A stretch of DNA of 49,273 nucleotides, from NCBI GenBank assembly GCA_017452165.1, contig JAFTMY010000035.1:1-49273 (forward strand), written 5' to 3'. Both the position numbers and the translations under genes were made by a program. The DNA is from Clostridia bacterium (GTDB taxonomy: Bacteria > Bacillota > Clostridia > Christensenellales > UBA1242). The notes beneath the pieces were generated by a model. The model had not been told where the DNA came from, ran no database searches, and was given only the letters and a program-made list of their open reading frames with translations. Positions 1 through 49,273 of the stretch are shown piece by piece; within the stretch, counting starts at the first letter, position 1, and the number at the start of each line of letters is the position of its first letter.

Positions 1-1828
1 CAAAAGATTTTTGAAAATTAAAGTATGGTGCAATTGTTTTTGCGATATGTGCATTTTCTTCGGTAACACCCTTAAATTTATCTTTTGCAAAATAATATTT
101 GAATTTTTCAATAGTTGCTTTTAATTGGCGTTGTTTACCATGGTTATTTGTGTTAGTCTTTTGAACTTCATCAAAATTATTGTAGCAACTAACAATAAAG
201 CCTGAACGTTTAGATTCTTCTACTAAAAGTTCATCATAGTTTTCCATAAAAAAGTCAGTGAAGTTTTTGTTGAAACCATTGCTTTTCATATTTTTAAAGT
301 TCTCAGCAAATTTGTAAATATTAATGTTTTCTTTTTTAAGTTTGTCTATTAAAAAGTTTACGGTTTTTTGAGCGTAGTTTACAATTTTGCCGTTTTCTTC
401 ATAAGGTGGCTGAAAAGCACCAATGTTATATAAGAAATTATATACATCTCCGTTGTATTCTTCAATATCTATACCCACTTGCTTAAACATAGAAAAATTA
501 TGTTTTTCAATAAAGTTTTTAGAATCTTCTTTTGGAAGAGTTACTAAAAAACTATTATAAAAATCAGCATATAAAGGATTGTTTTGTTCTCTAAGTAAAA
601 TGCTTTTAGAATTCCAATTATTTGATAAAAGAGCAAGGTTTAATGATAAATTGTTAAGTGGTATTGATTGTTCAGTTTGCTCATTTTCGATTACAAATCC
701 ATCAGTTGTTTTTCTAAAAAACTTAAGCGAATCACTGAATTGATTTGGCATACTTTTTACTGATGATGGTATTTTTAATGTTTTTAATGAATGACAATTA
801 GAAATTGCATCATAACCAATTAACCAAACAGATTCAGGAATAGTGAGAGATTCAAGATTTGTGCAATTAGCAAAAGTTTGATTTTCTATTACAGAAATAA
901 GAGGATTAACTTTGAAACTTTTTAGTGATGAGCAACCTTTAAAAGCAGAGTGATTAATAATTCTTAAAGAATTTGGTATATTTATATTTTCAAGTGCACT
1001 GCAATTAGAAAAAGCAAATGAACCAATACCATATAAATTGTTAGGTAGTGTGATTGATTTTAATGAAGCACAATTTTTAAATGCGTTAGAATCAATAACA
1101 CTAGTATTTCCCAAGAAAGTAAAATTTTCAAGAGAAGTGCAGTTTTCAAATGTTTCATTATAAACTTTTATAATTCCTCTAGGGAAAGAAAAACTTTTAA
1201 GAGAAGAGCAATCTTTAAATGCTCTATCGTGAAGTTCATTCATAAATTCAGGAAGTTTAATTTCTTCAAGACTTTTGCAACTAGAAAACGCATCTAATTC
1301 AATTTCTTTTATCTGCTCAGAACCTATAACATTTTTTAAAGAAGTGCAACCTTTAAAAGCAGAATTAGAAATACTTGTTACATTTTTAGGTAAATTAATA
1401 CTTTCTAAAGAATCGCAACCCATAAATGTATATGGTGGAATCTGCACTAAATTTTTAGGTAAATTAATATCTTTAAGTGAAGAACAGTTTTTAAAAACTG
1501 AAGCACCAAAATGTCTAACATTTTCAGGTAGTTCAACATCTTCAAGAGAAGAACAGTTTTCAAATAAATTCATTGGAATTGTATGAACGCTATTAGGAAT
1601 TTTAACACTTTTTAAGTTTTTGCAGTTAGCAAATGCACTGCTTTCAATAGACTCAACAGTTTCTGGAATAACAATAGTTGTTAATTCATCTGTTCCTTCA
1701 AAAGCATAAGGTTGAATTTGCTTTACTGATTTAGGAATTGTATAAGTTCCATTTACAATCTTCTTTGGATTAATTGCATACAAAGTTCCATTTTCAATAT
1801 AAATAGGTTCTTGCATTGGCGATAACAT
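1..1828 (-). CDS. P1: LRR (BspA/LRR_5-type) + conserved family C-terminal domain protein; 3' end runs off the window
   Basis: It is absent from the ORF track because there is no stop in the window. The minus-strand ATG at 1826-1828 is preceded by GAGGTAG (RBS). Translation starts MLSPMQEPIYIENGTLYAINPKKIVNGTYTIP, followed by ~23-aa LRR units. The family linker (TTDGFVIE) and the C-domain motifs HNFSMFKQ, NGKIVNYAQK and CYNNFDEVQKTNTNNHGKQRQLKAT (nt ~115-185) follow. The QKTNT motif is in the same frame as the start codon (codon phase checked by hand). Confidence 0.85.
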   Translation of the reverse strand, partial: MLSPMQEPIYIENGTLYAINPKKIVNGTYTIPKSVKQIQPYAFEGTDELTTIVIPETVESIESSAFANCKNLKSVKIPNSVHTIPMNLFENCSSLEDVELPENVRHFGASVFKNCSSLKDINLPKNLVQIPPYTFMGCDSLESINLPKNVTSISNSAFKGCTSLKNVIGSEQIKEIELDAFSSCKSLEEIKLPEFMNELHDRAFKDCSSLKSFSFPRGIIKVYNETFENCTSLENFTFLGNTSVIDSNAFKNCASLKSITLPNNLYGIGSFAFSNCSALENINIPNSLRIINHSAFKGCSSLKSFKVNPLISVIENQTFANCTNLESLTIPESVWLIGYDAISNCHSLKTLKIPSSVKSMPNQFSDSLKFFRKTTDGFVIENEQTEQSIPLNNLSLNLALLSNNWNSKSILLREQNNPLYADFYNSFLVTLPKEDSKNFIEKHNFSMFKQVGIDIEEYNGDVYNFLYNIGAFQPPYEENGKIVNYAQKTVNFLIDKLKKENINIYKFAENFKNMKSNGFNKNFTDFFMENYDELLVEESKRSGFIVSCYNNFDEVQKTNTNNHGKQRQLKATIEKFKYYFAKDKFKGVTEENAHIAKTIAPYFNFQKSF

Positions 1829-1996: not shown

Positions 1997-2548
1997 ATGG
2001 CAAATATTAATAATGATAGATTTTTAACATTTGAGGTTCAAGATTATATAAAATCTAAAACAAATAATTTTCAAATGAATAGACCACTTGAAGTTGTTAA
2101 TGTGAATTCAACAGCATTTAATAATGGAACAGGAAGAGATTATAAGTTTTGTCATGATATTTTTCATCCAGAGACAGGTGAAAGATTAAAGCCTGTTAAA
2201 GGATATGTTGGTCATGATGAACTTGGAAGAGATAGATGCTACTATGCTGAATATCAAGATGTAAACGGAAAAACTTATTCTTATGCTTATCAATTTGCAA
2301 AATATGATGAAAAAACAGGTGAGAAAGTTTTATCAACAAAAAGCATTGAACAACAAATGAAAGAAGACTTAGAGATGTTAAAAGAAAAAGTAGCAAAAGA
2401 AGCAGAAGCAAAAGAAAAAGCAAATCAAGAAAATAAGGTTGATAAAGAAAGTTTAGATAAGCAACAAGCATTAAAAGAACAATTACTTGCTAAGCAAAAA
2501 GAAAAACAAAGAAAACAAGAAATTGAAGAATATGGTTTTGAACTTTAA
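1997..2548 (+). CDS. hypothetical protein with a charged coiled-coil-like C-terminus
   Basis: 183-aa ORF with an AAAGGAGAA RBS 7 nt upstream of the ATG. The C-terminal third is K/E/Q-rich (KEKVAKEAEAKEKANQENK...). A hairpin terminator follows. I recognise no family. Confidence 0.6.
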   Translation: MANINNDRFLTFEVQDYIKSKTNNFQMNRPLEVVNVNSTAFNNGTGRDYKFCHDIFHPETGERLKPVKGYVGHDELGRDRCYYAEYQDVNGKTYSYAYQFAKYDEKTGEKVLSTKSIEQQMKEDLEMLKEKVAKEAEAKEKANQENKVDKESLDKQQALKEQLLAKQKEKQRKQEIEEYGFEL

Positions 2549-2573
2549 TATTTTTATTAAATAAAGTATAATA

Positions 2574-2606
2574 AAAATCCCACGATTATTTCGTGGGATT
2601 TTTGTT
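2574..2606. terminator. bidirectional rho-independent terminator
   Basis: The stem AAAATCCCACGA (2574-2585) pairs with TCGTGGGATTTT (2591-2602). It is flanked by an A-run and a T-run and lies between the convergent CDSs 1997..2548 (+) and P2 (-). Confidence 0.7.
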
Positions 2607-5757: not shown

Positions 5758-8700
5758 TTATTCTTTTTCCCAAAGAGTGTATTGTTCTTCGTCGCTATCT
5801 CCTTGATAACCTTCGCCTGATTGTGTAAATTTTCCGTAGTCAATTGCCTCAAGAAGAGGCTCAGTTGGTTCATGATATTTAATAATTTCGTCTGTTAAGT
5901 CATTAAGATTCATACCCACAGAGATTTTTTTAAGTGGTTTATTAGGGTGTTGTTTATTATATTCTTCAGCAAATCTATTTATACCCAATATATATTTTTC
6001 ATATATTTCTTCAAAATAAACAGGATTAACACTATCGTTAATTTCAACATTATTAAATACACCATAGCCTTCATCAGGGTTAATGTAAAGGGTTGATTTT
6101 GCAATTATTTCATTGCCGTATTTAACAACTAAATTTTGAACATTAGGGTGGGTAATACTTGCGTGCATAATGCCTTCGCCAACGCCTTCAAGGTGGGCAC
6201 AACAAGAGCATAGTTTACCAAGTATATAGTTTTTAGGGTCATTTTTTTCAAGCCACTCAAAGTTAAACTGTTCAGTTGCAGTATCCACTAAATTTTCTAA
6301 TGTTTCAACTCTTAAGTTTTCAATTTCTTCACTATATTCATCAATATTTTCAAAAGGATTATTTTTTTCTTTTAAGTGGAAACCAAGAATACTACTAGGT
6401 GAATTTTTTTCTCTTCGTTCATCATCGATTTTAACTGCATAGTCAAATGTCATTTGGTCAGAAAAATAAGGTGAAATGGTATCTGAAATATGTTTATTTT
6501 CGTCAGTTATACCTAAGAACTTATTTTCAGCAAAATAATCTTTAAATTTTTGAATTGTAGGCTTAAGTTGTCTTTGAGAACCATGATTGTTTGTATTTGT
6601 CTTTTGAACTCTTTCAAATTCGTTGTAGCATCTAGCGAAAAATCCTGGGTTAGAAATATCTTCAAGCATAAGTTCATCGTAATTTTTCATAAAAAAGTCG
6701 GAAAAATCCTTCTTAAAACCATTATTTTGCATTTTTTCAGTCATATAATAAATGTCTGTAATATTCAAATGCCCTTGATTAAATTTTTGTAGTAAAAACC
6801 CACAAAGTTTTTGAGCATAGTCAACGGTCTTTCCATTTTTATCGATTATAGGTTTTTCTAAACCACCCATATTATATAAGAATTTATAAAATGCTGTATT
6901 TTCTGCAGGTGGATTTTCAGGGTCTAAGTTGAATTGTTTAAAAAATGTAAAGTTGTGTGAAGTTAAAAATTTTTCAATATCTTTTTGAGGTAATTCTCTT
7001 AAAAATGAATTATAAAATTTAGAGATAGATTCATTTTTTTGTTCTCTAATTAAAATGTCTTTATAATTCCAATTTTTAGATAAAAACGCTGGATTTATAT
7101 TTAAAGTTTCAAGAGGGATTGAATCTTTTGTTTCTTTAGATAAAAGTGAGAAGCCGTCATCAACTTTTCTAAAATATAATAAATTTTTATTTATGCTATT
7201 ATCAAAAAGTTCAATTGAATCTGGAACAAAAATTTCTTCAAGTGAAGAACAACCTGAAAAAGCATCTTTAACTTTTTTAATAGACTTAGGAAGTTTAACT
7301 TTTTTAAGTGAAGGGCAGAACTGAAAAGCAGAAGCATTTATATATTTAAGACCTTCATTAAAGTTTACTTCAACTAACTTTTCGCAGTTATAAAAAGCAT
7401 CAGTTCCAATAGTAATTAATGAATCAGGCAAAGTTATAGATTTAAGTGAAGTGCAGTTTGCAAAAGCACTAACTTTTATTTCTTGGAGATTTTTAGAAAA
7501 TTTAATATCAGTTAGTTTTTTACAACCAGTAAAGGCAGATTCTTCAATAAACTTAACACTATCAGGAATTTCAATAGATTTAAGGTTTACGCAGTGTTGA
7601 AAAGCATAATCATTAATTCTTTCTATACCATTTGGTAGTTTTATATCTTCAAGGTGAGCACAGCAATAAAAAGCATAAGTTCCAAGTCTTTTTACTGTAT
7701 CAGGGATTTCAATAGATTTTAAATTGTAGCAGTTTGCAAATGCTTGGTCAGAAATTTCAGTTAAATTTTTAGGAAGTTTGACCTTTTCAATTTTGTCATC
7801 ACAAAAGAAACAACTATCTCCAATTTTTTCAACACTATCAGGAATATCTACATATTTAAGAGCAAAGCAGTTAGAAAATGCCGAATGTCCTAAGGTTTTT
7901 GTTCCTTCTGGGATATTTATATTAATTAGGCTGTTACAATTACTAAATGCGTTGTCTTTTATTTCAGTTAAATTTTTAGGGAGTTCAATTTTTCTTAGTT
8001 TTTTGCAATCATTAAAAGTATTTTTCTCTATTGTTTTAACATTTTCAGGTATAATAATTTCTTCTAACTCCTTGCAACTAGCAAATGCATTTTCTCCAAT
8101 AGATTTTAAATTTTCAGGTAGTTTAATATATTTAATACCTGAACCATTAAAACCATTAGAAATAATAGATGTAACAGAACTAGGAATTTCTATGTGAGTA
8201 AGTGACTTACAGTTTTTAAACATTTCAACATTTATAAAAGGTATTCCTTCTGGAAGATTAATATATTTTAAATTTTCACAGTCAGAAAATACACTTCCAC
8301 CAATTGCAAGGTCAGGGTTATTTGGAAGAGAAACGCTTTCTAGTTCTTTGCAACCAGAAAAAGCAAAATGCTTAATATTTGTTACATTTTCAGGAATTGA
8401 GATATTTTTTAATTTAGAGCAACTAGAAAAAGCCCTTTGACCAATCATAGTAGCATTTTTTGGAAGATGAACTTCTGTAAGGGAAGAACAGTTTTCACAT
8501 AAATGACTAGGTATTTCTTCAATGTTATCAGGAAGGTTAAGAGATTGTAATGATTTGCAAGAATTAAAAGCACCTTCACCCATATAAATCATAGAACTAG
8601 GAATATTTATGCTTTTTAAGTTAGAGCATTCAGCAAAAGAATTTGTGCCAATACTTAAAATTCCGCTTGGTAAATCAATGCTTTCTAATTTTTTGCAGTT

Positions 8701-9108
8701 TGAAAAAGCATTTTTCTTAATTCTCTCTAATTTTTTAGGGAATTTAATTTCTTGAAGAGAAGTGCAGTCAGCAAATGTTTCTTCATAAATAGTGTCTAAC
8801 TTACTAGGAAGTTCAACATATTTAAGTCTTGAACAGCCTTCAAAAGCATTGTTACCAATATGCTCAACTTTTTTAGGAATTATAATTCGAGTTAAACTTG
8901 AGCAGTCTTTAAAAGCCTTATTACCAATAAATTCAAGTGATTTTGGTAATATAATTTCATTTACTTCTAACTCTTTACAAACACCAGGGTCAATTTCGAT
9001 AACACCTTCAGGAATATGAAGTATTGAAAAAATATTTCCATCACTGGTGTAATATTGTTCTAAGTCGTTAGGGTAAACTTCTTCAAGAACTCCTTGATTT
9101 ATTTTCAT
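5758..9108 (-). CDS. P3: LRR + conserved family C-terminal domain protein (1116 aa)
   Basis: Complete ORF with an AAGGAGA RBS. It has the N-cap MKINQGVLEEV, ~640 aa of LRRs, the linker FRKVDDGFSLLS and the full C-domain motif set (CYNEFERVQKTNTNNHGSQRQLKPT; ILGKLCSCCAHLEGVGEGIMHASITHP; AKSTLYINPDEGYGVFNNVEI). Confidence 0.92.
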   Translation of the reverse strand: MKINQGVLEEVYPNDLEQYYTSDGNIFSILHIPEGVIEIDPGVCKELEVNEIILPKSLEFIGNKAFKDCSSLTRIIIPKKVEHIGNNAFEGCSRLKYVELPSKLDTIYEETFADCTSLQEIKFPKKLERIKKNAFSNCKKLESIDLPSGILSIGTNSFAECSNLKSINIPSSMIYMGEGAFNSCKSLQSLNLPDNIEEIPSHLCENCSSLTEVHLPKNATMIGQRAFSSCSKLKNISIPENVTNIKHFAFSGCKELESVSLPNNPDLAIGGSVFSDCENLKYINLPEGIPFINVEMFKNCKSLTHIEIPSSVTSIISNGFNGSGIKYIKLPENLKSIGENAFASCKELEEIIIPENVKTIEKNTFNDCKKLRKIELPKNLTEIKDNAFSNCNSLININIPEGTKTLGHSAFSNCFALKYVDIPDSVEKIGDSCFFCDDKIEKVKLPKNLTEISDQAFANCYNLKSIEIPDTVKRLGTYAFYCCAHLEDIKLPNGIERINDYAFQHCVNLKSIEIPDSVKFIEESAFTGCKKLTDIKFSKNLQEIKVSAFANCTSLKSITLPDSLITIGTDAFYNCEKLVEVNFNEGLKYINASAFQFCPSLKKVKLPKSIKKVKDAFSGCSSLEEIFVPDSIELFDNSINKNLLYFRKVDDGFSLLSKETKDSIPLETLNINPAFLSKNWNYKDILIREQKNESISKFYNSFLRELPQKDIEKFLTSHNFTFFKQFNLDPENPPAENTAFYKFLYNMGGLEKPIIDKNGKTVDYAQKLCGFLLQKFNQGHLNITDIYYMTEKMQNNGFKKDFSDFFMKNYDELMLEDISNPGFFARCYNEFERVQKTNTNNHGSQRQLKPTIQKFKDYFAENKFLGITDENKHISDTISPYFSDQMTFDYAVKIDDERREKNSPSSILGFHLKEKNNPFENIDEYSEEIENLRVETLENLVDTATEQFNFEWLEKNDPKNYILGKLCSCCAHLEGVGEGIMHASITHPNVQNLVVKYGNEIIAKSTLYINPDEGYGVFNNVEINDSVNPVYFEEIYEKYILGINRFAEEYNKQHPNKPLKKISVGMNLNDLTDEIIKYHEPTEPLLEAIDYGKFTQSGEGYQGDSDEEQYTLWEKE

Positions 9109-9132: not shown

Positions 9133-11886
9133 TTATTTTTCAAAAGGATTTTCATTTTGAGTAGTGTTTTGATCTTTGCTAATATCCCAAAGTTTATATT
9201 GATGTCTTGCACTATCTCCAATGTGACCATCTCCACTTAGGTTAAATTTGCTATAATTTATAGCAGGGTAAAGAATAAAACTTTCATCATGGTGTTTTTG
9301 GATTTCTTCGGATAAGTCATTTAAGTGCATTCCAACAGTTAATATTTTGAGTGTTTTTTCAGGATTTTCTAAATTATATTGTTTAGCAAAATTATGAACA
9401 CCTAAGATGTATTTTTCATATATAGCAGGGTGTTGTGATTTTGGTGTATTTTCATAAATTTCAACATTATTAAAAACACCATAGCCATCATCAGGGTTGA
9501 TAAATAGTGTAGACTTAGCGATTATCTCACCATTATTATTTCTAATTACTAAATTTTGGATATTTGGGTGGATAATGCTTGCTCTCATAATACCTTGGCC
9601 ATTGCCTTCAATATGAGCACAGCAAGAGCAAAGTTTTCCTAATATATAATTTTCAGGGTCATTTTTTGCAAGCCAATCGTAAGTAAATTCATCTTTTGCA
9701 GATGATGACAAGTTCTTGGCAACTTCTATTTGACTATTTTCAATCATTTCACCAAGTTTATCAATTTTATCAAAGGGTTGTTCTTTTAAATGAAAACTTA
9801 AAATATGCGAAGGTGAGTTGCTATTTATTCTTTCTTCATTAATTTTTGTGGCTTTATCAAAAGTTTCTTGTGATGAGAAATATGGAGAGATTGCGTCAGC
9901 AATATCCCTTGTTTCTTCAGTTATATTAGAAAATTTGTTTTCATTAAAATATTCCACAAACTTTTTAAAAGTAGGTTTAAGTTGTCTTTGAGAGCCATGA
10001 TTGTTAGTGTTTGTTTTTTGAACTAAATTAAACTCATTATAACATCTTGAGAAAAATCCTGGTTTATAATATTCTTGCTCATGAATTTCATCAAAATATT
10101 TCATAAAATAGTCTGTAAATTCTTGATTAAATCCATTAACTTCCATATTTTCGCCAAAGTTTCCAAGTTCGGTAATATCTTCAAAATAACCTTGTTCAGT
10201 TTTTTGATTTAAAAACATACAAACTTTTTGTGCATAATTTATTGTTTTTCCGTTTTTATCAATAGTAGGAGGATTAAATGCACCTAAATTATAAAGTATT
10301 TTATAAAAATTTGAATCACGAGTTCTAATAACAGAATCATCATAATTAAATTGTTTAAAAAATGTAAAATTATGATTATCCATAAATTCTTGTGCTTTTT
10401 CTATATCTATTTTTGATAAGAACAAGTTATAAAATTCAGCGATTTTTTTATTATTTTGTTCTCTAAATAACTATTCTTTTCTATCCCAGTTACGAGATAA
10501 AAATGGAATATTAATTTTGATATAATCAGCAGGTAAAGAGTCAGATGTTCTTTCTTCAAGCATAGAAAAACCATCTTCATCTTTTCTAAAAAATTTTAAT
10601 TCTCCAATACCAAATTTAGGGAAAAATCCTACTAATTTATCATAAAATTTAATTGATTTAAGTGAGTCGCATTTATCAAATACTTGACTTCCAAGAGTGG
10701 ATAAAGCCTTTGGCATTACAATATTTTTTAACGACTCACAACCTTTAAAGCATTGCTCATTAATTGCAGTTATATTATCGGAGAGTTTAATATTTTCAAG
10801 AGCAGAACAATTAGAAAATGCTTGACCATAAATTTCTGTTACGCTATCAGGAATAGTGATAGATTTTAAACTTTTACAATTTGAAAAGGTAATAGGTCTA
10901 ATTTTTGTAATATTATTAGATAATTTAACATCTTCTAAGGCGTAGCAACAATTAAAAACAGATTCTCCAAGACTTGTAACAGTATCAGGTATTTCAATAC
11001 TTTTAAGTGATGTGCAAGCCCAAATTGCATCGTTTTCAATGGTTGTAAGATTTTTTGAAAGTTTAAGGTTAGTAAGTTTTTCGCATTTTCCAATAGATTC
11101 TTTTCCTAAATTTTTTACAGAGTCTGGAATAACTAAAGTATTAAGGGATCTGCACTCACAAAATGCTCCGTCAGGAATAATTTCTAATTTATTAGATAAT
11201 TTTATAAAGTCAAGTTTATGACAACTGTGAAAGCAGTTTTGACCAATTTTTTCAACACTATCAGGCATATTTACAGTTTTTAAGTTGTTACAACCATGAA
11301 AAACACTATCATCAATATATTTTAGTCCATTAGGTAAATTAATTTCTTCTAAATTTTTACAAGAAGAGAACGCATTATTTTTTATTTCTATTAAATTTTC
11401 TGGCATTGTTATAGACCTAAGTTGTCTACAAGAAGAAAACGCATTGCTACCAATTATTTTTACACTATTAGGAATTGTGAAGGTTTCAAGTGAACTACAA
11501 TCATAAAATGTATTTGATTCAATGCTAGTAATGCCATTAGGAAGATTAATACTTTTTAATGAAATACAATTCATAAATAAACTTTCATTTAAAATTTTAA
11601 CTGAGTCAGGAATAGTTATTTCAGTAAGTCTTCTACAACTGCAAAAAGCACCTTTTCCAATTTCATTGACAGAATTTGGAATATTAACTTCTTTTAACTC
11701 CGTGCAGTTCATAAAAGCATTTTCTCCGATAGATTTTAAAGTGCTCGGAAAAATAACTTTCTCGAGATTATCAAGTCTACGAAAAGCATAATCGTTAATT
11801 TTTATTATACCTTCAGGAATAGTAAAAGTTCCGTTTACTATATCTTCAGGAGATACACTAACTAATATTCCGTTTTCTATTTTCAT
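9133..11886 (-). pseudogene. P4: family member interrupted by one in-frame TAG (the ORF track shows it as 471-aa LRR and 430-aa C-domain pieces)
   Basis: ORFs 10471..11886 and 9133..10425 are in the same frame (both upper coordinates are 0 mod 3). Translation across the junction reads LSRNWDRKE-TAG-LFREQNNKKIAEFYNLFLSKIDIEK. This is collinear with the intact paralogs (e.g. LSKNWNYKDILIREQKNESISKFYNSF). The TAG lies at 10471-10473. The 'M' of the downstream ORF is a TTG Leu codon with no RBS. Confidence 0.8.
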
Positions 11887-11915: not shown

Positions 11916-14324
11916 TTATCTTTCTAATTCAACTTCCTTAGTTTCTTTCTTCTTTTTTGTTTCTTCATTTTTCCAAAGGATATATTGAGATTTGCTGCTA
12001 TCTCCAGGGTGTCCAAAGCCTTCTAAATCATAGGTAGAAAAGTCAATAGAATCATAAAGTTCTTTAGATTTTTTGTGGTGTCTTACAATTTCAGGTTCTA
12101 AGTCGTTTAAGTGCATACCAACTGTTATGACATTAATTGGTTTGTCAGGGTGCTGTTTATTGTAATGATTTACAAAATCCTTTATACCTAAGATGTATTT
12201 TTCATAAATATCAGATTTTAAGTCATTATAGAAATTAGATACTTCAACATTATTAAATACGCCATAGCCTTTTTCAGGGTTGATAAATAGGGTGGACTTA
12301 GTAATGATGAAATTATTTTTATCTCTAATAACAAGATTTTGAATATTAGGGTGAATAATACTTGCCCTCATTATACCTTGACCATGACCTTCAATGTGTG
12401 CACAGCAATTACAAAGTTTACCTAGTATAAAGTTCTTAGGGTCATTTTTTTCAAGCCACTCGTATGAAAACTCATTAATCGCAGCGCTAGTAAGGTTATG
12501 AGCAGTTGTTGTTTGTTCGTTTTTAATAGCATCACTAAATTCATCAATTTGAGCAAATGGATTTTCTTCTTTTAAATGAAAGCCTAAAATGTTATTAGGA
12601 ATATTTTTTTCTTTTCTTTCTTTATCAATTTTAACTGCAATATTAAAAGATTTTTGTTCTGAGAAGTATGGTGAAATTGTATCAGCAATTTCCTTAGTTT
12701 CTTCATTAATTCCTTTAAATTTATTTTCTGCAAAATAATCAACAAATTTTTTAAAAGTTGCTTTAAGTTGTCTTTGAGAACCATGATTATTAGTGTTTGT
12801 TTTTTGGACTTCTTCAAATTCGTTGTAGCATTTTGCAATAAAGTTTGGATTTGTTTTTTCATACGCAATGATTTCATCAAAGTATTTCATAAAAAATTCA
12901 GAAAATTCTTTTTTATAGCCAGTTAATTTCATTTTTCTAGCACAATCACCAAAGGAAAAATCATCAAAAACTCTTTGTTTTATTTTTGTATCAAGAAAAT
13001 TATAAACTTTTTGAGCGTGATTTATAGGTTTTCCGTTTTCATCAATTTCAGGGCTATCCATTGTGCCTAAGTTGTATAAGAATTTAAAAGAATTTGCAAT
13101 TTCAGAATAAACTGCATTAGGATTAATATTTAACTTTTTAATAAAAGTAAAATTATGTGAATCCATAAACTCTCTAAAGTGTTCAGGTTTAAATCTCCAA
13201 AGCAAACTATTGTAAACTAAAGCCACGTTTTCATTTTTCTGTTCATTTAAAATAATATCTTTTTTATCCCAGTATTTTGCTAAAGTTCCAACGTTAATAT
13301 TTAATTTTTCAGTAGGTAAAAATTCAGTTCCTTGCTCAGTTGAGAGGGTAAAGAATCCATCTTCCTTGTTTAAGTAAGGAAGAGGATTGTATAAATAATG
13401 TTGGTCTAAGTGTTTGAGTTCATCATAAAATTTAATACATTTTAGTCCACTACAATCTAAAAATGCACCATTTTCTACATTTTTAAGTGATTTAGGTAAC
13501 GATATATTTTTTAAAGAATTACAACTTTCAAAACATCTAGAGCCGATGTATGTTAGATTTTTTGAAAAATCAATAGATTCAAGTGAAGAGCAATTACTAA
13601 ATGCATTGGGCCCAAGAATTTTAATAGAATCAGGTAATGTAATGTGTTTTAAATTCACACATTGTGAAAATAAACCATAAGGAATATCTTCAAGACTATT
13701 AGATAATTTTGCTTCACTAAGTCTTGTGCAACTACAAAAAGCACCATTATCAATATATGTTACAGAATCAGGAATTTCAATTTGTTCAAGCGAGTCGCAA
13801 TATAAAAATGCGTTACCACCAATACTTTCTAAGCCATTATTAAGTTTAATGCTTTTTAAATTATTACAACTAACAAATGCTTCTTCTTCAATTTTTGTTA
13901 CTGTGTCAGGAAGTTCAATTTCAAGTAATGATTCACATTCGTTAAAAGTTCTAGCGCTTATAGTTCTAAGTTCATTAGGAAGTTTTATAGTTTCAAGTCT
14001 TTTACAACCTTGAAAACACTCATCACCAATAATCTTTACACTATCAGGAATTTTAACATTTGTTAAATTATAACAATTAGCAAATGCACCATTTTCTATA
14101 AGATTAATTCCCTCAGAAAATTCAACAGAGAGCAATTTTTTGCAATCCAAAAAAGCATTTTCACCAATAACTTCAAGAGAACTTGGTAAAATGACGTGTC
14201 TAAGATTTTTTAAATTATAAAAAGCATTAGCGCTAATTTCAGTTACGCCTTCTGGAACGATAAATGTTCCTCTTTGTATATCTTCTGGGTCTATGTTAGA
14301 TAAAATTCCTTTTTCTATTATCAT
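11916..14324 (-). CDS. P5: LRR + conserved family C-terminal domain protein (802 aa; shortest LRR array)
   Basis: Complete ORF with an AAGGAAA RBS. It has the N-cap MIIEKGILSNIDPEDIQRGTFIVPEGV, ~320 aa of LRRs and the C-domain motifs CYNEFEEVQKTNTNNHGSQRQLKAT and ILGKLCNCCAHIEGHGQGIMRASIIHPNIQNLVIR. It is closest to P4. Confidence 0.92.
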   Translation of the reverse strand: MIIEKGILSNIDPEDIQRGTFIVPEGVTEISANAFYNLKNLRHVILPSSLEVIGENAFLDCKKLLSVEFSEGINLIENGAFANCYNLTNVKIPDSVKIIGDECFQGCKRLETIKLPNELRTISARTFNECESLLEIELPDTVTKIEEEAFVSCNNLKSIKLNNGLESIGGNAFLYCDSLEQIEIPDSVTYIDNGAFCSCTRLSEAKLSNSLEDIPYGLFSQCVNLKHITLPDSIKILGPNAFSNCSSLESIDFSKNLTYIGSRCFESCNSLKNISLPKSLKNVENGAFLDCSGLKCIKFYDELKHLDQHYLYNPLPYLNKEDGFFTLSTEQGTEFLPTEKLNINVGTLAKYWDKKDIILNEQKNENVALVYNSLLWRFKPEHFREFMDSHNFTFIKKLNINPNAVYSEIANSFKFLYNLGTMDSPEIDENGKPINHAQKVYNFLDTKIKQRVFDDFSFGDCARKMKLTGYKKEFSEFFMKYFDEIIAYEKTNPNFIAKCYNEFEEVQKTNTNNHGSQRQLKATFKKFVDYFAENKFKGINEETKEIADTISPYFSEQKSFNIAVKIDKERKEKNIPNNILGFHLKEENPFAQIDEFSDAIKNEQTTTAHNLTSAAINEFSYEWLEKNDPKNFILGKLCNCCAHIEGHGQGIMRASIIHPNIQNLVIRDKNNFIITKSTLFINPEKGYGVFNNVEVSNFYNDLKSDIYEKYILGIKDFVNHYNKQHPDKPINVITVGMHLNDLEPEIVRHHKKSKELYDSIDFSTYDLEGFGHPGDSSKSQYILWKNEETKKKKETKEVELER

Positions 14325-14395: not shown

Positions 14396-17300
14396 CTAGT
14401 TCTTTAATATTTTATCATCTAGTTTCCAAACTGTTCTTTGATGTTCGCTGCTATCTCCACTATAACCTGTGCCATCGGTGTCAAATAAACCATAATCAAT
14501 TGCTTCAAGAAGAGGGAAAGTTTGTTCATGATTTTTAGCAAACATTAGTTTTATATCATTTAAGTTCATACCAACTGATATGATTTTAAGAGGATTATCT
14601 TTATGAAGTTCATTATATTTTTTAGCGAAAGCATCAATACCACTTAGATATTTTTTGTAAATCTCGTCAAGATGCTTATTATCAATAAAGTCATAAACTT
14701 CAACATTGTTAAATACGCCATATCCCTCTTTTTCATTAATATAGAGAGTAGATTTTGCTACAATTTCACCTTTTTTATTTCTAATTACAAGGTTTTGAAT
14801 TGATGGGTGAATAATACTTGCACGCATAATTCCATAACCTTGACCTTCAATATGTGAACAGCAAGAGCAAAGTTTTCCAAGTATTAAATTGTTAGGGTCA
14901 TTTTTTTCAAGCCAATCATAAGTAAATTCACTATTTGCGCTATCAATCATTTTTTGAATAATAGAAGTTTGAGTTTGGTTAATCTCTTTTGAAAGTTCAT
15001 CAATTTCTTCAAAAGGACTTTCTTCTTTTAAGTGAAATCCTAAAATATTATCAGGAACTTGTCCTTCTTCCTTTTCTTCTAAAATTTTAACAGCATTTTC
15101 AAAAGTTGCTTGTTTTTTGAAATAAGGAGACAATGTGCTAGCAATAGGTCTAGTTTTTTCAGTGATACCTAAAAATTTATTTTCTTTAAAATAGTCAACA
15201 AATTTTTGAACGGTAGGTTTAAGTTGTCTTTGACTACCACGATTATTAGTGTTTGTTTTTTGAACCTCATCAAATTCGTTATAGCATCTAGCAATAAATC
15301 CTTGTTGGAATATTTCTCTATTCATAAGTTCGTCAAAATTATTAATAAAAAATTCAGTAAATTCTTTATTAAAACCATTATTTTGCATTTTTGATGTAAA
15401 ACTTGAGATATCTCTAAGTGTTAAAGAATTTGATTTAAATTTTTTAAGTATAAATTCACAAACTTTTTGTGAGTAGTCAATCTTTTTTCCATTTTCATCG
15501 GTATATGGTTTCTTAAAACCACCGAGGTTGTATAAAAGTTTAAAAAGGTCAACATTTTCTGGTTTATTTTCTTCTAAATCAAATTGTTTTAAAAATGTAA
15601 AGTTATGAGATTCTAAAAACTCTTCGATTTTTTCTTGAGGGAGGTTTCTTAGGAAACTTTCATAAAATTGTGCATATTTTGGATTTGATTGCTCTTTTAA
15701 AATTACATCTTTATAATTCCAGTTTTTAGATAAAAATGCTGGGTTTATGTTTAAGTTTTCAAGAGGAAGAGAACCAATTTCTTGCTTAGATAAAAGCGAA
15801 AAACCATCTTTTTCTTTTTTGAAAAATAGTAAATTTTCATTTTGGTTTTTTGAAAGATATTTTATAGTTTTTGGAACAAAAATTGATTCAAGTTTTTCAC
15901 AACCACTAAAAGCATTGTAACCAACTTCTTCAATAGATTCAGGAAGAGTAATTTCCTTTAAAGATTTGCAACCATAAAAGACTTCATTTCCAATTCGTTT
16001 TAAATTTTTAGGAAGTTTAATTTCTTCAAGTGATGCACAGTGCATAAAAGCATTTGTATTAATAGAAGTTATGCTATCAGGAAGATGAATAGATTTTAAG
16101 TTAGGGCAGTTTTCAAAAGTTCCTTCATGTATAATTTCTAAGTTATCAGAAAGTTTTACATTTTCAAGACCTTCGCAACTATAAAAGGCATAAGGACCTA
16201 AATGATTTAAACTATTAGGAAGAGTAATAGATTTTAATTTATTACATTCTTGAAATGCATATTCATCAACAAACTCAAGATTTTTTGGGAGTGTTAAATT
16301 TTCTAAATTTTTACAGTAATAAAATGCATAAAGTCCAATTTTTTGAATATCATCAGGAAGATTTATAGATTTTAAATTATAGCAAGAACTAAATGCTTGA
16401 GTTGGGATTTCTTTTAAATTATTAGATAGTTTTACTGTTTCAAGAGACTCGTTATTGGCAAAACAATTTTCCCCAATAGAGTTTACACTATCAGGTAACT
16501 CAATATTTTTAAGTGCATAACAACTTAAAAATGCTGATGATGCAATTCTTTTAACACCATTAGGGATTTCAATTTTTTCAAGTTTTTCACAATCAGAAAA
16601 AGCACTTGATTCAATACTTACTAAATTTTTTGGGAGTTTTACAGAGTGAAGGTTGATACAATTATTAAAAGTATTTCTAGAAAGAATTTCTACACCATCA
16701 GGAATTTCTATTTCTTCTAAATATTTACAATTATAAAAAGCAGACGCATCAAGTCTTATTAAACTTTTTGGAAGTTTAATTTTACTAATACCTGAACCAT
16801 TAAAAGCACTACTTAAAATTGATGTTACAGATTCAGGAATTTCAATTTCCTTAAGCGAAGTGCAGTTTTGGAAGGTTGACATATTAATATATTGAAGACC
16901 ATTAGGTAGAGTAACTCTTTTTAAATTTTTACAATCATTAAAAAGATTGCTTGCAAGTGAAATTTTTGGATTGTCAGGGAATTTTATTTCTTCAAGAGAA
17001 CTGCAACCTGAAAAAGCATCGTGATGAATAGTTGTAAGTGTATTAGGAATATCAATGTATTTTAAACTTAAACAATTACTAAAAGCGTTTGAACCAATTT
17101 CAATAGTTTTTGGTGCTAAAGTAACTTTTTTAAGAGAAGTGCAACCGTCAAAAGTGTTAGGATAGATAACATTTGCTTCCTTAGGCATTGTAATTTCTTT
17201 TAAACTTTCACAACCTGCAAAAGATGATTCTCCAAGAGCAATGATACTATCAGGCAATTCAATATTTTGCAAACTTTTACAATTTCTAAAAGCATTATCT

Positions 17301-17755
17301 TCAATACCTGTTAAATATTTTGGTAAAATTACATTTTCAAGAGATGTGCAGTTATAAAAAAGATTTTTTCTAATTTTATATAAAATTTCAGGAAGACGAA
17401 CAGTTTTTAAAGAAGAGCAACCACTAAACGCACCTGAGAAAAGGGAAGTAACAGAATTTGGAATAAAAATTTGGTTAAGACTTGAACAATTTAAAAAGGC
17501 TCTTGAGTTAATTGTGTCAACGCTAGCAGGAATATTAATACTTTTTAAACTTTCGCAATCAGAAAATGCATCAGTTCCAATTTCTGTAACTGTATTAGGT
17601 AAAACAACTTCTTCAAGATTTGCAACACCCATAAATGCATCATCATCAATTTTTGTTACGCCATTAGGCACAACAAAAACACCATTATATGGTATATCTT
17701 CACAGTATACATCTGATAATAAAACTCTGCCATCATCTAAATGTTTGTATTCCAT
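14396..17755 (-). CDS. P6: LRR + conserved family C-terminal domain protein (1119 aa)
   Basis: Complete ORF with a GAGGTAA RBS. It has ~640 aa of LRRs that are collinear with P3. C-domain motifs are CYNEFDEVQKTNTNNRGSQRQLKPT and ILGKLCSCCSHIEGQGYGIMRASIIHP. Confidence 0.92.
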   Translation of the reverse strand: MEYKHLDDGRVLLSDVYCEDIPYNGVFVVPNGVTKIDDDAFMGVANLEEVVLPNTVTEIGTDAFSDCESLKSINIPASVDTINSRAFLNCSSLNQIFIPNSVTSLFSGAFSGCSSLKTVRLPEILYKIRKNLFYNCTSLENVILPKYLTGIEDNAFRNCKSLQNIELPDSIIALGESSFAGCESLKEITMPKEANVIYPNTFDGCTSLKKVTLAPKTIEIGSNAFSNCLSLKYIDIPNTLTTIHHDAFSGCSSLEEIKFPDNPKISLASNLFNDCKNLKRVTLPNGLQYINMSTFQNCTSLKEIEIPESVTSILSSAFNGSGISKIKLPKSLIRLDASAFYNCKYLEEIEIPDGVEILSRNTFNNCINLHSVKLPKNLVSIESSAFSDCEKLEKIEIPNGVKRIASSAFLSCYALKNIELPDSVNSIGENCFANNESLETVKLSNNLKEIPTQAFSSCYNLKSINLPDDIQKIGLYAFYYCKNLENLTLPKNLEFVDEYAFQECNKLKSITLPNSLNHLGPYAFYSCEGLENVKLSDNLEIIHEGTFENCPNLKSIHLPDSITSINTNAFMHCASLEEIKLPKNLKRIGNEVFYGCKSLKEITLPESIEEVGYNAFSGCEKLESIFVPKTIKYLSKNQNENLLFFKKEKDGFSLLSKQEIGSLPLENLNINPAFLSKNWNYKDVILKEQSNPKYAQFYESFLRNLPQEKIEEFLESHNFTFLKQFDLEENKPENVDLFKLLYNLGGFKKPYTDENGKKIDYSQKVCEFILKKFKSNSLTLRDISSFTSKMQNNGFNKEFTEFFINNFDELMNREIFQQGFIARCYNEFDEVQKTNTNNRGSQRQLKPTVQKFVDYFKENKFLGITEKTRPIASTLSPYFKKQATFENAVKILEEKEEGQVPDNILGFHLKEESPFEEIDELSKEINQTQTSIIQKMIDSANSEFTYDWLEKNDPNNLILGKLCSCCSHIEGQGYGIMRASIIHPSIQNLVIRNKKGEIVAKSTLYINEKEGYGVFNNVEVYDFIDNKHLDEIYKKYLSGIDAFAKKYNELHKDNPLKIISVGMNLNDIKLMFAKNHEQTFPLLEAIDYGLFDTDGTGYSGDSSEHQRTVWKLDDKILKN

Positions 17756-20636: not shown

Positions 20637-20897
20637 TTATTCTTCATCATCACTTTCAGCATCACTCGCTTCTTTAAGTTGTTTAGATTTTTCGTTAAGA
20701 GCAACGAATCTTTCATAAACTTCTTTATATTTTTGTTCGTGAATTTTTATTCTTTGTAAAAGGTCTTCATCATTAGGATTGTTAGCATATTCTTGCTTTA
20801 AAACAGCAGTTTCTGCTTGAAGATTGTCAAAAATCATAGATAACTCTTCAAGTTCATCAAGTGTTTTTATAAATTCATATTTAATAAGATCGCTCAT
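20637..20897 (-). CDS. small acidic coiled-coil-like protein (86 aa), overlapping the 3' end of P8
   Basis: The ATG at 20895-20897 is preceded by AGGAGA at a spacing of 8 nt. The first 17 nt overlap the P8 tail (P8 stop at 20881-20883). The sequence is helical and E/K/Q-rich and ends SDAESDDEE. A terminator follows directly. Confidence 0.6.
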   Translation of the reverse strand: MSDLIKYEFIKTLDELEELSMIFDNLQAETAVLKQEYANNPNDEDLLQRIKIHEQKYKEVYERFVALNEKSKQLKEASDAESDDEE

Positions 20898-27972: not shown

Positions 27973-27974
27973 CA

Positions 27975-31696: not shown

Positions 31697-31698
31697 TT

Positions 31699-33139: not shown

Positions 33140-33168
33140 TGGACTTAATAATAATTTTATGTTATAAT
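33140..33168 (+). promoter_or_regulatory. sigma-A-type promoter (TGGACT-17-TATAAT with TGn extension)
   Basis: TGGACT lies at 33140-33145, followed by a 17-nt spacer ending in TGT, then TATAAT at 33163-33168. It sits ~25 nt upstream of the 33193 start. Confidence 0.5.
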
Positions 33169-33192
33169 TATAAATGGCGAGGTGGGGGAATT

Positions 33193-34317: not shown

Positions 34318-34329
34318 GGAGTATATTAA

Positions 34330-39444: not shown

Positions 39445-39513
39445 TAAAAAATAAAACTATGGTTGTATAAGTTTTATAATAATAAAATAAATAAAATAGG
39501 AGGAAAAAAGAAA

Positions 39514-41031: not shown

Positions 41032-44013
41032 TTAAGGCTGTTTTTCAGTATCGTTGGTAGAAATTTGTATACTCTTTTTGTTTTTAGTATTTTTATTATC
41101 TACTTTATAAAGAATATATTGTTCAATAAAACAATCACCTTCATAGAAATTGCCATTTGCTCCATATCTTGAATAATTTATTGATTGTAACAAGTTTTTT
41201 GATACATCATGATTTTCTTCAATATAATCTTTAAGGTCATTAAGTGTCATACCTACATTGATTTGAGTGAGTGGAGTTTCAGGGTGTTCTTTATTATATT
41301 GTTCAACAAATTTTTCAATACCAAGCATATATTTTTCATAAACTTGTTTTTTATATTTTTTTGGTAAATCATTAGAAATTTGAACAGTATTAAACACACC
41401 ATAACCTTCTTGACGATTAATGAATAATGTTGATTTTGCTATAATTTCATTTTTTTCATCTCTAATAACTAAATTTTGGACATTAGGGTCAATAATGCTA
41501 GCACGCATAATTCCATATCCCATACCATCTACATGAGCACAGCAAGAACAAAGTTTTCCCAAAATTAAGTTTTGAGGGTCATTTTTAGCAAGCCACTCAA
41601 AAGTAAATTCATTTTCAGCAGTTTTTGATAAATTATCAAGTGTTTGAGTTTGTATATTTTGAATTTCGCTTGATGATTTGTCTATTGTGCCAAATGGATT
41701 ATCTATAGATGTTACTCTTTCTTCTTTAAGTGGAATGCTTAAAATGTTATCAGGAGAGTTTTTCATTTTACGTTCTTCCATAACACCTACGGCTCTGTCA
41801 AAAATTGTTTGAGCACCAAAAAATGGGGAAACAGTGTTTGCAATTGGTCTAGTTTCTTCTGTTATTCCATCATATCTATTTTCTTCTAAATATTCTTTAA
41901 ATTTTTTAATTGTTGGTTTGAGTTGTCTTTGACTTCCACGATTACTCGTATTTGTCTTTTGAATTTCTTCAAACTTTGCATAACTTCTAGCGATAAAACC
42001 ATATCTGTTTTTTTCTTCTACAATAAAATCATCAAAATTTTCCAAGAAAAAGTCTGTGAACTCTTTTTTAAATCCAAGGACACTCATAGATGAGCCTATG
42101 CTATAAAGGGTATCAAGTCTAACTTTATGTTTATCCAATTTCTCAAGCATTAAACCTGTTACTTTTTGTGCATAATCAATTTTCTTTCCGTTATGCTCAA
42201 TTGGTTTATCAAGCATACCAAGATTGTAGAAAAGTTTAAATGTGTTTAGGTTTTGAATACGATATTTGCCTGCAATTTGCTTAAAGAAAGTAAAGTTATG
42301 TGATTTTAAAAATTCATCTGCTCTTTGTTTTGGTAGTCTACTAAAAAACTCATTGTAAAAAGATGCAACAAATTGATTCTTTTGTTCAGAAAGAAGCATA
42401 TCAACGTTATCCCAATTAGAAGAAAGAACAGATAAGTTGAGATTGATGGAATCCATTTCTTTGCCATTAATCTCTTCTTTTGTTTTAGAAAAAATTAATC
42501 CATCAGATCTTTTTGTAAAATAAGGAAGTGTTACACCATTGTAACAGCCCATAGTTTTAACTGACTTTGGAATAAAAAGGGTAGAGATTGAATAACAATT
42601 TCTAAAAGCATTATCTCCAATTTTTTCAACGGTTTCAGGAAGAATCATTGTTTTTAATTTTACACAGTGGAAAAATGCATCTTCATTAATAGATTTTAAG
42701 CCACTATTGAGTTTTATATTCTCAAGATTTTCACAATTTGAAAATGTTTTAGTATGAATAGTGTCAACACCTTTAGGTATTGTAATATTTTTTATAGTTC
42801 TACAATCCTCAAAAGCGTAACTTCCAATTGCGTTAACTGTGTTTGGAATATTTATATTATCTAAACGATAGCATTTTGAAAAAGCATTACTGCCAATTGA
42901 AGTTAAGCCTTCGATAAGATTAATGTCTTTAAGTTTATTACAGCCACTAAAAGCATATAAATCAATAGACTTGATTGTGTCAGGTAAATGCACACTTTCA
43001 AGAGAATAACAATCCATAAATGTGTAATTTCCAATATTACTTATTGGTCCTTGAATATCAACGATTTTAAGGGCAGGGCAGTCAGTAAAAGCGGAATCTC
43101 GCATAGTTTTTACAGATTTTGGAATTATAACTTTTTTTGCGTTACATTGTTTAAATGCGCCTTTACCAATAAATGATACACCTTCTTCTATTTGTAAATT
43201 TTTAAGATTTAAGCATTTTTGGAAAGCATAGTTGTCAATTGTTTTTACACTTTTTGGTATAGTAATGCCTTTAAGACCAGTTTCTTCAAAAGAGTTTTTA
43301 CCAATCAAAGTAAGGGTTTCAGGGAGTTTTATAACTTTAAGCATTGGGCAATGACCGAATGCTCCATCACTAATAGTTGTTAGGTTTGCAGGAAGTGAGA
43401 CATTTGAAAGATTAGGGCATTTGTAGAAAGTGCAGACATCGATATTTTTTATATTTTTAGGAATTTTTATAGATTTAAGTCCAGTGCATTCCATAAAAGC
43501 GTTTCTACCAATACTTTCAAGAGAGTCGGGTAATGTAATTGTTGCTAAAGACTCACAAGTCTCAAACGTAAAAGGGCTAATTGATTTTAAATTGCTTGGA
43601 AGTTTAACTTTTTTAAGTCCTTCACATCTTGCAAAAGCACGAATACCAATAGATTCTACGCTTTCAGGAATGGATACATTTGCAAGTGAAGAGCAGTTAT
43701 AAAAAACACTACTACCAAGAGATTTTAAACCTTCAGAAAGTTTTAAATTGTATAGATTTGAACAGTTTATAAATGCTTCGGAATCAATTTCTTGAACATT
43801 TGAAGGAATTGTAATTGAATAAATTAAATTACAATTTGCAAACGCTTCTCTTTCAATTTTTTTTACAGAATTTGGAATATTTACACTTTTTAAGCCTTCT
43901 AGACCTTTAAAAACACTATCACCAATAGTGTGCACATTTTCAGGAATATCAAAATGACCATTTACTAGGTCATCTACGCTAACTTTAGTTAAAACACCAT
44001 CAACAATTCTCAT
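41032..44013 (-). CDS. P10: LRR + conserved family C-terminal domain protein
   Basis: The ATG at 44011-44013 gives MRIVDGVLTKVSVDDLVNGHFDIPENV, which matches the family N-cap. The 20-aa ORF-track extension lies in the promoter region. C-domain motifs are YAKFEEIQKTNTSNRGSQRQLKPT and ILGKLCSCCAHVDGMGYGIMRASIIDP. Confidence 0.9.
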   Translation of the reverse strand: MRIVDGVLTKVSVDDLVNGHFDIPENVHTIGDSVFKGLEGLKSVNIPNSVKKIEREAFANCNLIYSITIPSNVQEIDSEAFINCSNLYNLKLSEGLKSLGSSVFYNCSSLANVSIPESVESIGIRAFARCEGLKKVKLPSNLKSISPFTFETCESLATITLPDSLESIGRNAFMECTGLKSIKIPKNIKNIDVCTFYKCPNLSNVSLPANLTTISDGAFGHCPMLKVIKLPETLTLIGKNSFEETGLKGITIPKSVKTIDNYAFQKCLNLKNLQIEEGVSFIGKGAFKQCNAKKVIIPKSVKTMRDSAFTDCPALKIVDIQGPISNIGNYTFMDCYSLESVHLPDTIKSIDLYAFSGCNKLKDINLIEGLTSIGSNAFSKCYRLDNINIPNTVNAIGSYAFEDCRTIKNITIPKGVDTIHTKTFSNCENLENIKLNSGLKSINEDAFFHCVKLKTMILPETVEKIGDNAFRNCYSISTLFIPKSVKTMGCYNGVTLPYFTKRSDGLIFSKTKEEINGKEMDSINLNLSVLSSNWDNVDMLLSEQKNQFVASFYNEFFSRLPKQRADEFLKSHNFTFFKQIAGKYRIQNLNTFKLFYNLGMLDKPIEHNGKKIDYAQKVTGLMLEKLDKHKVRLDTLYSIGSSMSVLGFKKEFTDFFLENFDDFIVEEKNRYGFIARSYAKFEEIQKTNTSNRGSQRQLKPTIKKFKEYLEENRYDGITEETRPIANTVSPFFGAQTIFDRAVGVMEERKMKNSPDNILSIPLKEERVTSIDNPFGTIDKSSSEIQNIQTQTLDNLSKTAENEFTFEWLAKNDPQNLILGKLCSCCAHVDGMGYGIMRASIIDPNVQNLVIRDEKNEIIAKSTLFINRQEGYGVFNTVQISNDLPKKYKKQVYEKYMLGIEKFVEQYNKEHPETPLTQINVGMTLNDLKDYIEENHDVSKNLLQSINYSRYGANGNFYEGDCFIEQYILYKVDNKNTKNKKSIQISTNDTEKQP

Positions 44014-49273: not shown

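Follow-up and report, generated by a model that had tools for sequence, protein, structure and literature searches.

The stretch of DNA analysed here (the window, 49,273 nucleotides (nt) long, positions 1 to 49,273 of contig JAFTMY010000035.1 from the Clostridia bacterium assembly GCA_017452165.1) is dominated by eleven paralogous genes, named P1 to P11, which are all located on the minus strand and encode proteins composed of a variable N-terminal array of leucine-rich repeats (LRRs) followed by a C-terminal module of near-constant length, hereafter the C-module. Using the bacterial genetic code, an open reading frame (ORF) is found at each of the places where an initial annotation, made from the sequence alone, had located these genes, and the eleven co-oriented genes sum to 31,884 nt, or 64.7% of the window, in agreement with the earlier estimate of about 65%. 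They belong to a large, real, strongly conserved and unannotated family, for which a chemistry, a set of targets and a cellular location can be proposed. What is new here is the combination of an LRR arm, with a proposed targeting role, and a constant module in which a new helical domain is followed by a GNAT-like domain of atypical character. The genes and the three parts of P3 are listed below (aa, amino acids).

1..1828, minus strand: P1, 15 LRR units; only about 242 aa of its C-module precede the window/contig end
2647..5592, minus strand: P2, 981 aa, 21 LRR units and C-module
5758..9108, minus strand: P3, 1116 aa, about 27 LRR units and C-module; source of the structure models
7183..9108, minus strand: LRR_5 solenoid of P3 (aa 1-642)
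6268..7182, minus strand: C-module part 1 of P3 (aa 643-947), a small beta-hairpin (the 'DGF' linker) and then an all-alpha domain of about 290 aa
5761..6267, minus strand: C-module part 2 of P3 (aa 948-1116), with a GNAT-like fold in the predicted model
9133..11886, minus strand: P4, 917 codons, 18 LRR units; in-frame TAG at 10471-10473
11916..14324, minus strand: P5, 802 aa, the shortest paralog, 12 LRR units; also present on ENA scaffold_907
14396..17755, minus strand: P6, 1119 aa, about 27 LRR units
17781..20429, minus strand: P7, 882 aa, 16 LRR units; 885 aa if the GTG at 20438 is used
20881..24639, minus strand: P8, 1252 aa, 33 LRR units; heads the seven-gene run P8-P2
36059..39295, minus strand: P9, 1078 aa, 25 LRR units
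41032..44013, minus strand: P10, 993 aa, 21 LRR units; alternative TTG start at 44073
46665..49273, minus strand: P11, 868 aa visible, 15 LRR units; N-terminus lost at the window end

The N-terminal parts of these proteins match the Pfam family LRR_5 (PF13306, BspA type) with E-values from 4e-157 to 7e-240 (cut-off 27.7 bits). A repeat hidden Markov model built from the window identifies 12 to 33 units per protein, almost all at a 23-residue spacing, with the consensus LKSIKLPESLKxIGxNAFxNCxS, in which nine positions constitute the scaffold and fourteen are of high entropy. The LRR parts span 314-771 aa, as had been estimated by eye (about 320 to 770 aa), whereas the accompanying count of 14-33 units was too high at its lower end. 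Pairwise identity between paralogs in this region is only 33-44% (mean 38%), close to what the scaffold alone would produce, and the exposed positions are therefore essentially unrelated from one paralog to another, which substantiates the strong divergence noted before. The C-modules, by comparison, are 474-499 aa long, are 41-60% identical pairwise (mean 48%) and share 91 invariant columns; P3 and P6 are the closest pair, with 60% identity in the C-module and 44% in the LRR part. Hence, the layout proposed in the initial annotation, a variable LRR arm joined to a C-terminal domain of constant length with many invariant blocks, stands, except that the size of this domain, then put at about 450 aa, is larger by the boundary used here. 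The initial annotation described this layout as the reverse of that of polymorphic toxins; the variability is N-terminal and not C-terminal, and the N-terminus itself is the LRR cap.

That the paralogs are authentic genes is supported by several independent lines of evidence. The longest exact DNA word common to any pair of them is 36 nt (median 21), and an AGGAG/AGGTG-like ribosome-binding site precedes all 10 of the visible starts, P1 for instance starting at an ATG that ends at 1828. The window is contained in ENA ERZ28654584 scaffold_907 (69,006 bp), and the same array and genes recur in other, independent assemblies and also in a species related to this one, which excludes an assembly duplication; an exact look-up with P2 returned no record. 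An assembly or annotation artefact, in the form of collapsed or duplicated contigs or of spurious ORFs, can thus be given a practically negligible probability: no nucleotide run longer than 36 is identical between paralogs, the ORFs are long, intact and equipped with ribosome-binding sites, and the array recurs elsewhere. The initial annotation had already judged such an artefact to be unlikely, and the short shared words, the 41-60% identity of the C-modules and the independent assemblies bear this out. The parent scaffold and a sister contig furthermore indicate a complete length of 871-875 aa for P11.

The only interrupted gene is P4, in which the TAG codon yields two ORFs of 471 aa and 430 aa. 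Its ortholog in the related species is intact (916 aa) with CTA (Leu) at this position, and P4 displays the same pattern of purifying selection as the neighbouring paralogs; the TAG therefore either arose by nonsense mutation very recently or reflects an error in sequencing. An alternative genetic code is not needed, as all the ORFs are intact under table 11 save for this one codon.

The C-module forms the extreme C-terminus of every member checked, with a median tail of 2 aa in 114 full-length relatives. No significant match was obtained for it among Pfam, NCBIfam, PADLOC or PHROGs families, and sequence-profile searches of the PDB with the whole module or with its GNAT-like part alone returned chance matches only. 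The sole recurrent signal comes from the Pfam family DUF6933 (PF22016), which gives sub-threshold matches (gathering score 27 bits) in five of nine window paralogs and in six of 36 wider members, with a best E-value of 3.5e-4; in P8, this match spans approximately C-module residues 140-216. No literature on DUF6933/PF22016 was found, and literature searches for DUF6933/PF22016, for LRR_5/PF13306 and for BspA together with acetyltransferase gave no description of an LRR_5 plus C-module architecture.

An AlphaFold2 model of the whole C-module of P3, computed from a 36-sequence alignment, reached a predicted local distance difference test (pLDDT) of 88.3 and a predicted template-modelling score (pTM) of 0.62. 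Residues 1-305 of this model fold into a short beta-hairpin, corresponding to the DGF linker of the initial annotation, and then into an all-alpha domain. Residues 306-474 follow the order b1-a1-a2-b2-b3-b4-a3-b5-a4-b6 (b, strand; a, helix), which is the topology of GNAT acyltransferases. Indeed, the 50 top matches of the full model in a Foldseek search of the PDB are all GNATs (NatD, RimL, PaiA, SpeG, Gcn5/PCAF and RimI among them), with probabilities of 0.97-1.0, E-values of 1.5e-3 to 1.3e-2, 130-200 aligned columns and target TM-scores of 0.12-0.60 (mostly 0.4-0.6), and a Foldseek search of the viral structure library BFVD likewise gives GNATs. The helical domain modelled alone (model m277ea45eef98, pLDDT 91.2) has no fold match in the PDB by Foldseek, the best hit having an E-value of 0.83 and a probability of 0.08. 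The predicted C-module is accordingly described here as two domains packed together, the first helical and new, the second a divergent version of the GNAT fold. The structure modelling advised in the initial annotation, whose author did not recognise the C-domain, has thus a mixed outcome: no curated family lies above its cut-off and the helical part of about 305 aa has no PDB relative, whereas the last 170 aa or so are predicted to adopt a GNAT-type fold.

Conservation is concentrated at precise places of this predicted structure. Family-wide, the invariant or near-invariant residues are C325, C327, C328, H330, S342, Q349, K362, T364, N368, Y408, N409, N427, D462 and Q467, which are largely of polar or catalytic types. 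They are carried by the loop between a1 and a2, with its near-invariant LGKLCxCCxHxxGxGxG sequence, by b2-b3 (Q349, K362, T364 and N368), by the end of b5 (VGxxxND) and by b6 (GD...Q). From what is known of the fold, the segments lining the substrate cleft of GNATs are among the conserved ones. The helical domain contributes a conserved HNFTF motif and an invariant VQKTNTxNxGSQRQLKPT loop, the latter being flexible in the model. Taken as a whole, the C-module is probably an active, divergent module of transferase type with an unusual Cys/His centre, as far as can be judged from a predicted structure.

When 1.84 billion representative proteins were scanned in full with HMMER, 917 representative clusters were retrieved at E-values up to 1e-3 and 430 at E-values up to 1e-30, and 178 family proteins are present in a word-indexed database. 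All the named members come from metagenome-assembled genomes (MAGs) of uncultured Clostridia, under the names Clostridia bacterium or Candidatus Onthoplasma faecigallinarum (Christensenellaceae), and they carry no label other than 'leucine-rich repeat (domain-containing) protein'. All the members checked consist of LRR_5 plus C-module, except for one apparent chimera with an AIRS_C domain. Related loci have a low G+C content (GC) where it was measured (24-34%) and display co-oriented tandem arrays of 2-4 genes. A distant clade, found in metagenome loci L015 and L017-L025 (GC 24-28%), is characterized by a conserved pair of tandem genes, for proteins of about 1240-1300 aa and about 995 aa, whose stop and start codons overlap. 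The genes that flank these pairs on the opposite strand include one for an AAA_5 ATPase, one for an ankyrin-repeat protein and others for large proteins without annotation, and some members of the clade show a second, partial match to the helices of the C-module within their N-terminal half.

As for phages, two IMG/VR pattern scans revealed no relative of the C-module, and a tblastn search of GenBank phages with three family members gave matches in the LRR region only, apart from one weak match in the C-module region (E-value 1e-2, Microcystis phage), which was disregarded. The sole structural match over the whole module is BFVD entry A0A7G9A3X2, an uncharacterised 656-aa protein of 'Bacteriophage sp.', with an E-value of 6.8e-12 over 546 columns at 13% identity.

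Comparison with a related species (JGI 3300018475, ENA ERZ27248370) reveals a syntenic array. The gene order 1252 - 87 - 885 - 1134 - 803 - 916 - 1116 - 977 aa is kept in this species, the sole difference being the insertion, on the opposite strand, of a small gene for a canonical GNAT. This gene (L011 18805-19260, minus strand; 151 aa) lies opposite to, and between, the P3 and P2 orthologs, and is not present in the window. In seven ortholog pairs the repeat number is nearly kept (1116 versus 1116, 802 versus 803 and 917 versus 916 aa, with 1119 versus 1134 aa as the extreme); P2, for example, corresponds to P0121 (977 aa), with 77% identity in the C-module and 67% in the LRR part. P1 has the ortholog P0011 (66-69% identity), and P11 the ortholog P0005. 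Overall, the ortholog pairs are 58-78% identical in the LRR part and 68-85% in the C-module, and their non-scaffold LRR positions still retain 44-68% identity. The ratio of non-synonymous to synonymous substitution rates (dN/dS, Nei-Gojobori) is 0.15 for the C-module, 0.10 for the LRR scaffold and 0.39 for the variable LRR positions, values that are rough, dS being about 1 and near saturation; the two classes of LRR positions, whose comparison had been suggested in the initial annotation, are thus both below 1. Conserved non-scaffold positions, repeat number and dN/dS together imply that each paralog keeps its own surface. For every paralog, the LRR part identifies the same ortholog as the C-module does, and a reshuffling of domains among paralogs after speciation was therefore rejected. 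From these sequence comparisons, the paralogs are old, and each has been maintained individually with a conserved surface of its own, which does not resemble a fast-turnover contingency or arms-race locus.

No route of export is visible for these proteins. None of the window copies or of the 114 full-length relatives has a hydrophobic N-terminus or signal peptide, and neither a lipobox nor a sortase, SLH or CWB anchor, nor an LXG/WXG domain, occurs in the 11 window copies or in these relatives. No transmembrane segment was predicted, the maximal 19-residue Kyte-Doolittle score being at most 1.22 in all 11 window copies, and no secretion-system genes were found within the window. As they lack a Sec signal, a transmembrane segment and an anchor, the family proteins most likely either function inside the cytoplasm or are released non-classically.

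The arrangement of the genes P8 to P2 is operon-like. The gaps between the genes from P7 to P2 measure 24-150 bp (24-71 bp within P7-P3), a consensus scan detects no terminator-like site in the P7-P2 intergenic gaps, and a small companion ORF lies between P8 and P7. The two features concerned are the following.

2573..2603, minus strand: terminator-like hairpin, with a 13-bp stem and a T-rich tail, immediately downstream of the stop codon of P2, from the consensus scan only
20637..20897, minus strand: companion ORF, 86 aa, an acidic helical hairpin that overlaps the P8 stop by 17 nt

The hairpin, the only strong one detected on this strand, likely ends a transcription unit running from P8 or P7 to P2, as judged from its sequence; a second, weaker minus-strand terminator-like site is located inside P5 (13383-13360). 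The companion ORF has no match to a Pfam or other curated family. It is conserved within family arrays in at least four genomes and missing from several other arrays. In each of two unrelated MAG contigs, a homolog with 42-43% identity is flanked by family genes on both sides, and the same place is occupied in the syntenic species. The copies at L003 10072-10323, L005 1162-1425 and L011 3419-3682 have in common the motif LKxxYAxNPxDE...VYxxFVxLN. Its product is a candidate partner for the LRR proteins, for example a chaperone, an adaptor or a regulator.

The explanation that we put forward, while granting it somewhat less than an even chance, is that the array encodes a battery of modular enzymes, in which the LRR arm would select the target and the shared helical plus GNAT-like module would carry out one acyl-transfer-like reaction. 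In this scheme, the paralog-specific surface of each LRR solenoid, kept in orthologs, would bind one macromolecular target, and the C-terminal module would perform the same reaction on each of them, most likely the transfer of an acyl- or aminoacyl-type group, at an active centre that probably includes the near-invariant CxCCxH/GxGxG loop. Because the arrays are operon-like, the cell would make the whole battery together. Several points weigh against this proposal. GNATs carry a Q/R-x-x-G-x-G/A motif at the b4-a3 junction, which binds the pyrophosphate of acetyl-coenzyme A (CoA). This motif is missing here, and the corresponding loop (residues about 382-392) differs in length and sequence among the paralogs and within the family, so that the donor may not be an acyl-CoA, or the domain may be a pseudo-enzyme. 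No Acetyltransf_* Pfam family is matched up to an E-value of 10 or 0.1, there is no profile-level similarity to GNATs, and hhalign gives a probability of only 0.2 when the alignment of the GNAT-like part is compared with the canonical 151-aa GNAT of the related species. The Foldseek E-values are themselves modest and rest on a predicted model; LRR_5/BspA-type proteins are classically surface or host-interaction proteins; and a dozen target-specific modifiers would be unusual in a small-genome bacterium. The predicted domain thus agrees with GNATs in its fold but departs from them in cofactor motif and sequence. As this resemblance is at the level of the fold only and the acetyl-CoA motif is absent, the C-module has no match to a characterised domain with an established function, the finding that, according to the initial annotation, would have overturned its claim of an undescribed system.

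The two readings offered in that annotation, exported effectors or adhesins on one hand and a repertoire of intracellular sensors on the other, both face counter-evidence in the analysis. According to the first, which we consider unlikely, the proteins would leave the cell by a non-classical or as yet unrecognised route, for example one akin to type VII secretion, vesicles or lysis, their LRRs would bind molecules of the host, of protists or of neighbouring cells, and the C-module would modify these molecules or mediate attachment. The classical association of BspA-type LRR_5 proteins with the cell surface and with host interaction points in this direction, as do the confinement of the family to gut-derived, low-GC uncultured Clostridia, the secreted-type DUF11/CLIPPER and camelysin-like proteins interspersed in the window, and the helical-hairpin companion, which could be a chaperone or targeting factor. 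The ankyrin-repeat protein and the AAA_5 ATPase are also conserved neighbours in the distant clade, although this may reflect shared ancestry only. However, the 11 copies and 114 relatives are devoid of signal peptide, lipobox, transmembrane segment, anchor and LXG/WXG domain, and the window contains no secretion-system genes, its sole FtsK/SpoIIIE-type protein being a single-domain protein of 392 aa. According to the second reading, the proteins would be intracellular immune receptors whose LRRs sense a phage or other foreign protein and whose GNAT-like module provides a toxic output, for instance by acylating aminoacyl-tRNA or some other essential component, thereby aborting the infection. 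GNAT-fold toxins that acetylate charged tRNA are known (TacT, AtaT), the proteins are predicted to be cytoplasmic, their only whole-module structural relative is a phage protein, and multi-copy arrays combining a variable sensor with a constant output would fit such a function. Defence islands, however, typically show presence/absence turnover and arms-race signatures, whereas this array is syntenic, with one-to-one orthologs of about 70% identity in another species and a dN/dS below 1 even at variable LRR positions. Moreover, there is no STAND, NACHT, NB-ARC or other nucleoside triphosphatase (NTPase) switch, no PADLOC match for two family members and four neighbours, and no cognate antitoxin or immunity gene beside each copy, all of which makes this reading improbable.

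A non-catalytic role is somewhat easier to envisage than immunity, yet we also hold it to be rather unlikely. The C-module would then be a pseudo-enzyme that docks, oligomerises or binds a ligand and may assemble the LRR arms, the Cys/His cluster holding a structural metal. The missing acetyl-CoA motif would be explained, CxCCxH looks like a metal-binding cluster, and the co-transcribed paralogs could form hetero-complexes with the small coiled-coil companion. On the other hand, the conserved K362, T364, N368, Y408, N409, N427, D462 and Q467, together with the QKTNTxNxGSQRQL loop, would be more in keeping with an active site than with a docking surface. Returning to the battery of enzymes, a more specific version, possible though doubtful, is that these undescribed LRR-guided modifying enzymes, each with its helical domain and CoA-motif-less GNAT-like module organised around a Cys3-His centre, would catalyse a kind of reaction that had not been associated with LRR proteins before, and would do so as batteries of a dozen paralogs on targets from a host or protist, from neighbouring cells or from phages, the latter case amounting to an NTPase-free immunity.

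Comparison with known systems helps to delineate the family. Its 23-residue repeats are of the same type as those of BspA-type LRR proteins (Tannerella forsythia BspA, Treponema denticola LrrA and the Trichomonas/Entamoeba expansions), and both groups are multi-copy in gut- or host-associated organisms. The bacterial BspA prototypes are secreted or surface-anchored and carry Ig-like, type IX secretion or anchor domains. In contrast, the present proteins begin at the LRR cap without signal peptide or anchor, and their C-terminal part of about 480 aa is the helical plus GNAT-like module, which the BspA proteins described so far do not have; by sequence, they are assigned to the LRR_5 repeat family and not to the BspA surface-adhesin class. 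The analogy with IpaH/SspH drawn in the initial annotation holds for the design only: IpaH, SspH and SlrP likewise combine a variable N-terminal LRR part with a constant, enzyme-like C-terminal module bearing conserved cysteine(s), in many paralogs per genome. There is, however, no homology, since neither Pfam nor Foldseek of the helical domain against the PDB detects a NEL domain, the all-alpha E3-ligase domain whose catalytic Cys belongs to a CxD motif; moreover, the LRR subtype is LRR_5 and not LPX, the terminal domain is GNAT-like, and the hosts are Gram-positive-type Clostridia without type III secretion. Relative to the GNAT superfamily, the predicted topology agrees and the PDB Foldseek top 50 are solely GNATs, but there is neither sequence-profile similarity nor a Q/RxxGxG/A CoA loop; furthermore, the domain is preceded by an obligatory 300-aa helical domain, and a CxCCxH/GxGxG loop between a1 and a2 is no GNAT hallmark. 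The phage protein A0A7G9A3X2 has only about 180 residues in addition to the module, leaving no room for a long LRR array. STAND/NLR-like sensors such as Avs and bNACHT also couple a variable sensor built from repeats to an effector domain that stays constant, but the present family has no NTPase domain or PADLOC match and its arrays are syntenic and under purifying selection. Finally, the LXG/WXG polymorphic toxins of the type VII secretion system (T7SS) differ in that the family has no LXG/WXG match and varies at its N-terminal side.

The family is of interest by its scale, with at least 917 clusters at 50% identity and two thirds of a 49-kb stretch, and by its structural content, that is a confidently modelled domain of about 300 aa without PDB match and a GNAT-like domain that has lost the cofactor motif and possesses a Cys/His-rich loop. 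If the C-module is an enzyme, these proteins would be a convergent Gram-positive counterpart of the IpaH design, with a variable LRR part and a constant enzyme, and would offer a way to identify the targets that abundant gut Clostridia, as yet uncultured, reach through a dozen different binding arms. In the opposite case, they still represent a large, stable and strongly selected investment of these genomes that annotation has overlooked.

The other genes of the window show no evident functional link to the LRR family, and no tRNA or Rfam RNA gene was found in it. Divergent from P8, the region 24974-32952 (plus strand) encodes HAD-like, NUDIX, family-2 glycosyltransferase, SDR, radical SAM/SPASM, 683-aa PHP-domain and 417-aa P-loop proteins, and looks like a cluster for the modification of a small molecule or a glycan. 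At 33139-34905 (plus strand), the gene of the 392-aa single-domain FtsK/SpoIIIE ATPase, which is too small for an EssC-type ATPase of the T7SS, adjoins that of a YgjV-like membrane protein. Near P9 and P10, DUF11/CLIPPER repeat and camelysin/TasA-like proteins are encoded at 34991-35812 (minus strand) and 39463-40869 (plus strand); the camelysin/TasA-like protein has an N-terminal signal-type segment, and by their sequences these proteins appear to be of secreted or surface type, unlike the LRR family. An unannotated 183-aa ORF (1997-2548, plus strand) is located between P2 and P1, downstream of P2, and the 975-aa gene that follows past P11 on the parent contig does not belong to the family. 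Lastly, a 218-aa ORF at 45537-46193 (minus strand) has a sub-threshold match to the transglutaminase core (E-value 0.0026) and is kept beside P11 in three assemblies.

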